Part shown: one piece after another, positions 3,922 to 5,259 of the stretch
Layout: every line of letters starts with the position of its first letter
Numbering within the stretch: position 1 is the first letter of the stretch
Virus record (IMG/VR): IMGVR_UViG_2654587571_000011
Reading direction: 5' to 3' (one strand)
DNA: 5,360 nucleotides
Origin: a virus
Taxonomy: Duplodnaviria > Heunggongvirae > Uroviricota > Caudoviricetes
Position numbers and translations under genes: made by a program
The notes under the pieces: model-generated
Databases searched by the model: none
What the model saw: only the letters and a program-made list of their open reading frames with translations
Told to the model about the DNA's origin: nothing

Positions 3922-5259
3922 ATGGGTACTGTAATTTCTCTTGAAGTGTCAGGAGTGGGGCTAGATTGGAGTAAGAACTCGCTGGGTATAGATCATGGAG
4001 GCCTGTTTCAAAGTGCCGATCATCACGTCAAACCACTAAATGAAGATCAAATAGAGGAAGGAGAGGACTTCGACACTCCTGATGGCATCCTCTGTCGTAC
4101 TGTGTTGCGTAAGCCTTTGGGGCAAGTTGCCTACCGATTGGAATTGTTGGGTTTCACCCTTGAAAATATACGCTATGAGTATGAACTCATGGCTAAAGAT
4201 TCAATTGAATACCAAGAGGAATTTAACGAATCCTGTCCGGAATATGCAAAGCCAATTAGTAACATGATGAGCTTTGATGAATTCGTTAACTTCATCAAGA
4301 GCGTAAATATTAGCGAGCTAAACGATGATTATATTAGCTTAAAAGATAGAATAAAAGAACGCGAGCTTATCAAGGGCCGATTTAATAATGATGAATTATT
4401 AAGCAGGATACCCCAATACGACAATGCCTTTGATAATGCTTGGTCTGAAAAGTCTGCTTTTGGGACTTTAGTTAGCATACTACATCCATACTCAGTGATG
4501 CGACTTTTGGCCGAAAATCCAAATAATCATAATGAATTCGTCACTTGGGATTACGGAGATCTAGTTTCTGCTGGTTATGCGAATATAAAAGATATTCAGG
4601 TAAATGCTCGCAGACGTGACAAGTTCCTGATTGCCACCGAGGGAAGCACCGACTCCAACGTCATCAAATACGCATTGCACCTCTTACGGCCTGATGTAGA
4701 AGATTTTTTTCACTTTATCGACATGAGTGAAGGGTACCCGTTCACTGGTTCAGGAAATCTGGTTAAGTTCGCTGCTGGGCTCGTAAAAATCGACATTCAA
4801 AACTTGATTGTTTTCGTGTTAGATAATGATTGCGAAGGGATTGAGGCATATGAAAAAATCCGCAAACTCGCATTGCCTCACAATATTAGCTGCATTCATC
4901 TTCCTGATCTTCCTCATTTCAATCAATTTCCAGCTATTGGTCCTCACGGCGTTACCTATGAAAACATCAATGGCCGGGCTGTAGCGATTGAATGCTATCT
5001 GGATCTAAGATTTTCTGATTATGATGAAGCGAAAATCCGGTGGTCAAATTACAAAAAGGAAAGTGATGCTTATCAAGGAGCGCTGGAAAATAAAGACTAT
5101 TACACGAAAAAATTCATGAAACTAAAACCAGGAAGTAAGGGTTTTAGCAATTATGATTTTGCCAAACTCGCTATTGTCTTGGATGAATTAATAAAAGCGT
5201 GCTCAAAAATCTCATCAGAGATTAGAAAAAATGAAGTAGATGTTCAATATCCAGACTAA
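3922..5259 (+). CDS. Toprim-like domain protein, 445 aa, with an uncharacterised N-terminal region; putative nuclease
   Basis: ORF from ATG 3922 (RBS AAGG at 3912-3915, five nt spacing) to TAA 5257-5259. C-terminal half carries a Toprim-like motif pair: KFLIATEGSTD (Glu240, nt 4639-4641) and VFVLDNDCEG (Asp301/Asp303, nt 4822-4830). No Walker A/P-loop was found in the first 230 residues, so it is not a full OLD/Gabija-type ATPase-Toprim fusion. Confidence 0.75.
   Translation: MGTVISLEVSGVGLDWSKNSLGIDHGGLFQSADHHVKPLNEDQIEEGEDFDTPDGILCRTVLRKPLGQVAYRLELLGFTLENIRYEYELMAKDSIEYQEEFNESCPEYAKPISNMMSFDEFVNFIKSVNISELNDDYISLKDRIKERELIKGRFNNDELLSRIPQYDNAFDNAWSEKSAFGTLVSILHPYSVMRLLAENPNNHNEFVTWDYGDLVSAGYANIKDIQVNARRRDKFLIATEGSTDSNVIKYALHLLRPDVEDFFHFIDMSEGYPFTGSGNLVKFAAGLVKIDIQNLIVFVLDNDCEGIEAYEKIRKLALPHNISCIHLPDLPHFNQFPAIGPHGVTYENINGRAVAIECYLDLRFSDYDEAKIRWSNYKKESDAYQGALENKDYYTKKFMKLKPGSKGFSNYDFAKLAIVLDELIKACSKISSEIRKNEVDVQYPD

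Follow-up and report, generated by a model that had tools for sequence, protein, structure and literature searches.

This locus raises the question of whether a Toprim nuclease can act as a phage-defence factor without help from another protein. To our knowledge, every characterised defence Toprim nuclease (OLD, GajA, AriB, JetD and Eco2) works under a large partner, which is either an ABC ATPase or an RT-msDNA cage. The DNA analysed here, called the window below, is a stretch of 5,360 nucleotides from the virus record IMGVR_UViG_2654587571_000011. An initial annotation of the window, made from its letters, had described a 445-aa protein with two Toprim-like motifs, an unfamiliar N-terminal domain and no ATPase gene around it, and had suggested a possible new defence or abortive-infection module. 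Our analysis retains the Toprim assignment, the partnerless gene and the abortive-infection-type reading. The N-terminal domain, however, is already catalogued, and the protein is not a new kind of system, because its family was predicted to be Abi-like in 2013.

The window covers the end nearest int of an e14-like lambdoid prophage that is inserted at icd. On it lie an ECs1072-family gene, xisE, intE (1267-2397), a gene for a 309-aa protein and the Toprim gene, with icd lying about 600 bp beyond. The Toprim gene takes the e14 slot between intE and icd, where K-12 has ymfD, ymfE and lit. An inverted repeat of 64 nt (36-99 and 5297-5360, 100% complementary) marks the ends of two IS3 copies, so that the earlier description of an int-proximal and IS-bracketed segment proves to be accurate. 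The sequence at 5297-5360 recurs at thousands of E. coli genomic sites. The closest complete genome (L001) lacks the right-hand IS3 copy, so the source strain of the window has an additional IS3 insertion. The int-plus-cargo segment, 100-5296, might invert or behave as a composite transposon. The region 600-1050, between the ECs1072-family gene and xisE, has a GC content of 0.52 compared with 0.30-0.45 elsewhere; the annotation of the closest genome has a frameshifted hypothetical pseudogene there (L001 10295-10614), and the region has the position of ymfH in K-12. The features of the window are listed in Table 1.

Table 1. Features of the window, with the observations on which each assignment rests.
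Feature	Position	Strand	Basis
IS3 terminus facing the segment, with the terminal repeat and the beginning of the transposase ORF	1..99	-	PGAP IS3 transposase annotation in L001; inverted repeat
309-aa divergent protein with an N-terminal hydrophobic segment	2611-3540	-	ORF
Upstream region of ~120 bp travelling with the Toprim gene; presumed promoter; AAAGG RBS 8-12 nt before the ATG	3800..3921	+	E. coli/Citrobacter conservation
445-aa gene: HEPN/Toprim-NTD1 domain fused to a predicted OLD-like Toprim nuclease domain	3922..5259	+	ORF list, identity matches, AF2 model
HEPN/Toprim-NTD1 (Pfam PF18871), aa 1-231, alpha+beta; presumed sensor/regulatory domain	3922..4614	+	
Predicted Toprim catalytic region, ~aa 232-400; strands 235-239, 263-266, 295-300 and 322-326 with helices between, then a beta-rich insert	4615..5121	+	
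Toprim glutamate motif E-G-x-x-D, codons E240-G241-S-T-D244	4639..4653	+	Invariant in A1 and A3
Toprim DxD motif, codons D301-N302-D303-C304-E305-G306	4822..4839	+	No variation at D301, N302, D303 or G306 in A1 and A3
Candidate second metal site, codons A355-I356-E357 ('S-x-E' in OLD-type Toprims)	4984..4992	+	
Candidate catalytic lysine, codon K391	5092..5094	+	Invariance; assignment by inference
GC-rich hairpin right after the stop codon; 7-bp stem with 6 GC pairs; T-run on the minus strand only	5262..5279	.	Conserved in the Citrobacter copy and the two E. coli contexts
Terminus of another IS3 copy in inverted orientation, inserted 38 bp past the stop codon	5297..5360	+	Inverted repeat

The 445-aa reading frame is genuine and lies exactly where it had been placed, starting with ATG and forming a complete coding sequence. 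Its product is 100% identical to WP_052908306.1, which PGAP names a HEPN/Toprim-associated domain-containing protein, and to a cluster of 221 member sequences (P0001) within a family of 986 clusters, or about 1,000. Neither this protein nor the 309-aa protein gives an informative match in PADLOC-DB, NCBIfam or PHROGs. Some E. coli genomes carry fragments of the gene only, for example a 412-bp 3' remnant in ECONIH5 (H5, NZ_CP026202.1 575347-575758), suggesting that the gene has decayed in some lineages. A truncated product of 253 aa with 97% identity is found as cluster P0008.

The N-terminal domain had been called unrecognised, and this is incorrect, since residues 1-231 match Pfam PF18871, HEPN/Toprim-NTD1, with a score of 165.9 bits, the cut-off being 25 (E 1.7e-48, profile positions 1-221 of 223). 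This domain was defined as an α+β domain of ~240 aa by Anantharaman, Makarova, Burroughs, Koonin & Aravind (2013, Biol Direct 8:15; PMC3710099), who reported that its alternative fusion partners are two HEPN families, a Toprim nuclease or an Mrr-like REase and who took the proteins to be Abi-like. The 445-aa protein is a member of the group of proteins that join PF18871 NTD1 to TOPRIM: the profile match is full, an alpha+beta N-domain of ~230 aa is followed by a C-terminal Toprim domain, and the architecture is identical. DSSP of the AF2 model likewise assigns mixed strands and helices over residues 1-231. Our profile search with NTD1 recovered 551 representatives among 1.84 billion proteins. 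The best 150 of these 551 matches, distant and short ones included, all have the same Toprim architecture or are truncations of it, and for the HEPN and Mrr fusions the 2013 paper is the sole source (PMC3710099). Beyond that paper we found in the literature no mention of the NTD1 domain and no test of the family, and a domain-centric defence screen of 2026 left out single-gene candidates. The prior literature on the family thus consists of a computational Abi-like prediction. What the present analysis adds is a confident model, a proposed OLD-type residue set, an N-domain without a PDB relative and a systematic lack of a partner gene.

Conservation within the N-domain was assessed together with its modelled structure. 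Residues K18, N19, R72, G77, W209 and G218 are invariant, and D33, H25 and N202 are nearly so. The segment of aa 1-30 (3922-4011) bears the conserved residues G2, T3, K18, N19, H25 and Q30, listed as invariant within this segment. Its pLDDT is 87-92 in the full-length model but 65-70 when the N-domain is modelled in isolation, where residues 1-3 and 17-21 fall below 50. This difference hints that aa 1-30 may pack against the Toprim domain, although the shallower alignment used for the isolated domain is an alternative cause of the drop.

The C-terminal half was examined with two alignments, one of 30 diverse homologues at 44-87% identity (A1) and one of 16 more distant homologues at 32-48% identity (A3). 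Both motifs are located as the initial annotation had read them, KFLIATEGSTD giving T239-E240-G241 and D244 and VFVLDNDCEG giving D301 to G306, with a gap of 61 residues. E240, G241, D244, D301 and D303 are invariant across all 30 and all 16 sequences, suggesting that the two acidic motifs are not chance matches. The AF2 model, for which the 30-sequence alignment served as input, has high confidence over its whole length (mean pLDDT 90.2, pTM 0.87). Within it, residues 235-326 form a beta-alpha unit of four strands alternating with helices, in which the parallel four-stranded sheet is flanked by helices, Glu240 follows strand 1 and the DxD motif follows strand 3. This is the Toprim layout with the motif residues at the expected strand ends, and the C-terminal half, as modelled, is a Toprim fold, as had been claimed. 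Pfam Toprim_2 matches the 445-aa protein below the cut-off (E 0.14), matches one relative (P0307) with 23.0 bits, above the gathering score of 22.1, and gives sub-threshold matches in 25 of 46 family members, among which no other family recurs. The closest structural matches of the model are defence nucleases. Foldseek against the PDB gives no match at E < 0.09, and a sequence-profile search of the PDB returned spurious matches only. When the family profile was aligned by hhalign with E. coli YbjD, a class 1 OLD protein, the probability was 0.7%, so that kinship to OLD is not demonstrable by sequence.

The candidate active site looks OLD-like. E240, D244, D301, D303, E357 and K391 are invariant in all full-length sequences of A1 and A3, while K378, unlike K391, is not conserved. 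At position 355 the 445-aa protein has Ala, whereas 9 of 14 distant full-length relatives have Ser, giving S-x-E. In Eco2, the OLD-type site consists of E374/D460/D462 for metal A, D378/S513/E515 for metal B and K562 (PMC12405507). The spacing from D303 to E357 is +54, compared with +53 from D462 to E515 in Eco2, and by spacing E240/D244 would correspond to Eco2 E374/D378. We infer a set in which E240/D301/D303 may bind metal A, D244/[S/A]355/E357 may bind metal B and K391 may be the catalytic lysine; the spacings are compatible with the Eco2 site.

The gene stands alone, without an ATPase or another partner. The absence of a P-loop and of an ATPase from the window was upheld: the ORFs and all six frames are free of Walker A motifs, and none of the neighbours has an ATPase domain according to Pfam. 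We also clustered every ORF lying up to 3.5 kb from the gene at 14 independent loci (two in E. coli, one each in Citrobacter, Klebsiella, Serratia, Bradyrhizobium, Stutzerimonas and Corallococcus, two on plasmids and four on viral contigs). The sole neighbour shared among them is the 309-aa ORF, and it adjoins just the two E. coli copies, which are near-identical. A 299-aa neighbour in Bradyrhizobium was considered as a homologue of the 309-aa protein and rejected, as the two show no similarity. Neither ARAGORN nor Rfam finds an ncRNA or tRNA partner in the window.

The limits of the mobile unit are indicated by the homology between E. coli and Citrobacter, which stops upstream of about 3800, some 120 bp 5' of the ATG, and extends beyond the stop codon; the unit is therefore a single gene together with its upstream region. 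A consensus scan of this upstream region gave no strong sigma-70 match, and its predicted RNA fold is no better than that of shuffled sequence (z -0.44). The gene had also been credited with a terminator of its own. A GC-rich hairpin does lie 3' of the stop codon, but its T-run is on the minus strand, and it looks like the terminator of a convergent 59-aa ORF (WP_016239916.1) located directly downstream (L001 14888-15067, minus strand, equal to window position 5287 onward; L014 6366-6545, minus strand). This small ORF is conserved in E. coli PS1Thumoskin9 and Citrobacter, is missing from strain PSJ-22 and is broken by IS3 in the window.

At all loci compared, the gene lies in a mobile or a defence context. 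It is present in 4 of 5,426 complete E. coli genomes, on 50 plasmids of many genera and at only 4 loci in IMG/VR. INPHARED gives one match, a frameshifted distant relative on MT836369.1 (L024 1884-2962), an unverified human-gut metagenomic scaffold labelled bacteriophage; this relative has the motifs TEGTSD, DNDAAG and SIE, with ~30% identity over the Toprim half. Other contexts include a three-integrase island in E. coli and CP4-type and ArdC islands, and the plasmid copies adjoin AbiEii, restriction endonuclease and RelBE genes. The Bradyrhizobium homologue lies in ICE cargo (L003 7341-13302) with AbiV, AbiE and a DEAD helicase nearby. This ICE cargo is a dense defence island that holds unannotated genes of 299 and 403 aa, HEPN_AbiV, AbiEi/AbiEii and a 1,723-aa DEAD/Helicase_C/MZB protein. 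In Klebsiella, the homologue sits at a prophage end beside an Mrr-like gene. Just downstream is a minus-strand trio (L006 7682-9704) of an Mrr_cat nuclease, an HATPase_c protein and a small protein with a weak match to a receiver domain, which looks like another defence-type module.

The protein differs from each of the defence Toprim systems to which it can be compared. An N-terminal ABC ATPase fused to Toprim defines the OLD family (P2 Old, class 1 TsOLD/YbjD and class 2 BpOLD) and GajA, and it is missing from the 445-aa protein, which has neither a Walker A motif nor an AAA or ABC match in Pfam. Gabija also has the GajB/UvrD partner, for which there is no counterpart here. The PADLOC models for OLD and Gabija do not match the protein; nor does Pfam OLD-like_TOPRIM (PF20469), which was seen in 1 of 16 members with E 0.29. 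AriB of PARIS is similar in being a Toprim effector without a fused ATPase, and it is carried in prophage or satellite hotspots and acts by abortive infection (PMC11464382, PMC9122126). AriB, however, needs AriA, an ATPase scaffold encoded separately, and the 14 loci have no gene of this kind near the Toprim gene; unlike the 445-aa protein, AriB also lacks an NTD1 domain. The searches against DUF4435 and the PADLOC models that the initial annotation had suggested, those for PARIS included, gave no match to the 445-aa protein. Retron Eco2 (Ec67, PDB 9i2f) has an RT-Toprim effector, whereas the 445-aa protein has no RT domain in Pfam, its N-domain is unrelated to RT, and no sequence similarity between it and Eco2 is detectable. 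Rfam detects no retron ncRNA family in the window, where the upstream region also has the unremarkable fold score given above. In position, the closest parallel is Lit, the cell-death peptidase of e14, a single-gene abortive-infection factor in the same intE-icd cargo slot of K-12. Lit, a zinc metallopeptidase that acts by cleaving EF-Tu, is unrelated to the Toprim protein, so the analogy is positional only.

Taken as a whole, we favour the interpretation, with a probability of roughly 0.55, that the gene encodes a self-contained single-polypeptide conflict nuclease of the abortive-infection type, which is independent of an ATPase and is carried as mobile-element cargo. It is probably a one-gene module for phage defence by suicide on infection. 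NTD1 would take the regulatory place of the ABC ATPase of OLD, GajA and AriA or of the RT-msDNA cage of Eco2. By such autoinhibition it would keep the Toprim nuclease inactive and would free it upon sensing a trigger, an infection-associated cue. The activated two-metal OLD-type nuclease would then cleave host or phage nucleic acid and arrest the infected cell, which would produce an anti-phage phenotype. A tRNA is a serious candidate for the substrate, because P2 OLD, AriB and Eco2 all cleave tRNAs; DNA, which is cut by GajA and JetD, would be the alternative (PMC12445682, PMC11464382, PMC12916289, PMC12405507). More tentatively, and at somewhat worse than even odds, we speculate that NTD1 is a cis-acting sensor of new fold that detects a phage cue directly and releases the OLD-type Toprim domain without ATPase, RT, msDNA or partner.

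Among the rival explanations, the one with the greatest weight, though still unlikely, is that the protein serves mobile-element maintenance or competition, either as an addiction or exclusion toxin that stabilises the carrier plasmid, ICE or prophage, or as a weapon against rival plasmids and ICEs. Carriage on such elements does not discriminate between defence and maintenance, since defence genes too commonly travel on plasmids and ICEs. There is neither a cognate antitoxin nor any other conserved neighbour at the loci compared, and the gene fills the slot that in K-12 belongs to the phage-exclusion gene lit, which both speak against a maintenance toxin. We consider it improbable, and clearly more so, that the protein is a non-conflict nucleic-acid enzyme, such as a primase-, topoisomerase- or RNase M5-like or repair Toprim protein serving replication or transfer of the element. 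Pfam finds in it no primase zinc-binding, RNA-polymerase, helicase or topoisomerase domains, and the structural neighbours of the model are defence nucleases, as noted above. The gene is also sporadic; its locations are variable cargo regions, not modules for replication or transfer, and they range over prophages, plasmids, ICEs and bare chromosomal sites.

Least supported is a two-gene system, in which the divergent, membrane-anchored 309-aa protein would be the sensor or partner of the Toprim protein. The two genes share a 381-bp divergent intergenic region and travel as a joint cassette of ~2.84 kb (window 2458-5297, 99.8% identity) in two unrelated E. coli contexts, the e14-like prophage and the three-integrase island, as a functional pair might. 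Against this, the 309-aa gene is missing from 12 of the 14 loci, including the 87%-identical copy in Citrobacter and the 97.5%-identical copy on a K. aerogenes plasmid, and the E. coli/Citrobacter homology ends before reaching it. No PF18871 gene adjoins its homologues in Yersinia, Shewanella and Alcaligenes, the GC content of the two genes differs (0.31 for the 309-aa gene and 0.40 for the Toprim gene), and its family, a separate one found in variable regions, is ten times smaller (99 versus 986 clusters). These findings make the two-gene explanation very unlikely. The 309-aa protein, which has no match in Pfam, PADLOC or NCBIfam, may be an independent accessory or defence candidate. Its homologues are found beside DUF3800 in a Yersinia prophage, beside an AAA_15/AAA_21 protein in Alcaligenes and beside a Macro-domain gene in Shewanella.

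The Toprim gene is therefore a reasonable candidate for experiments. Should the protein be inactive or unrelated to conflict, it would be one more annotated hypothetical in prophage cargo. If the preferred reading of a self-contained conflict nuclease is true, a family of ~1,000 clusters would show that a toxic Toprim nuclease can be gated by a minimal sensor of ~230 residues alone, and the gene would offer a small and tractable single-gene system in E. coli in which the trigger and the substrate can be studied and the prediction of 2013 is open to experiment. If NTD1 does act as such a cis-acting sensor without a partner, the protein would be a minimal Toprim abortive-infection system, and NTD1, because of its reported fusions to HEPN and Mrr nucleases, would be a portable sensor module for several effector classes.
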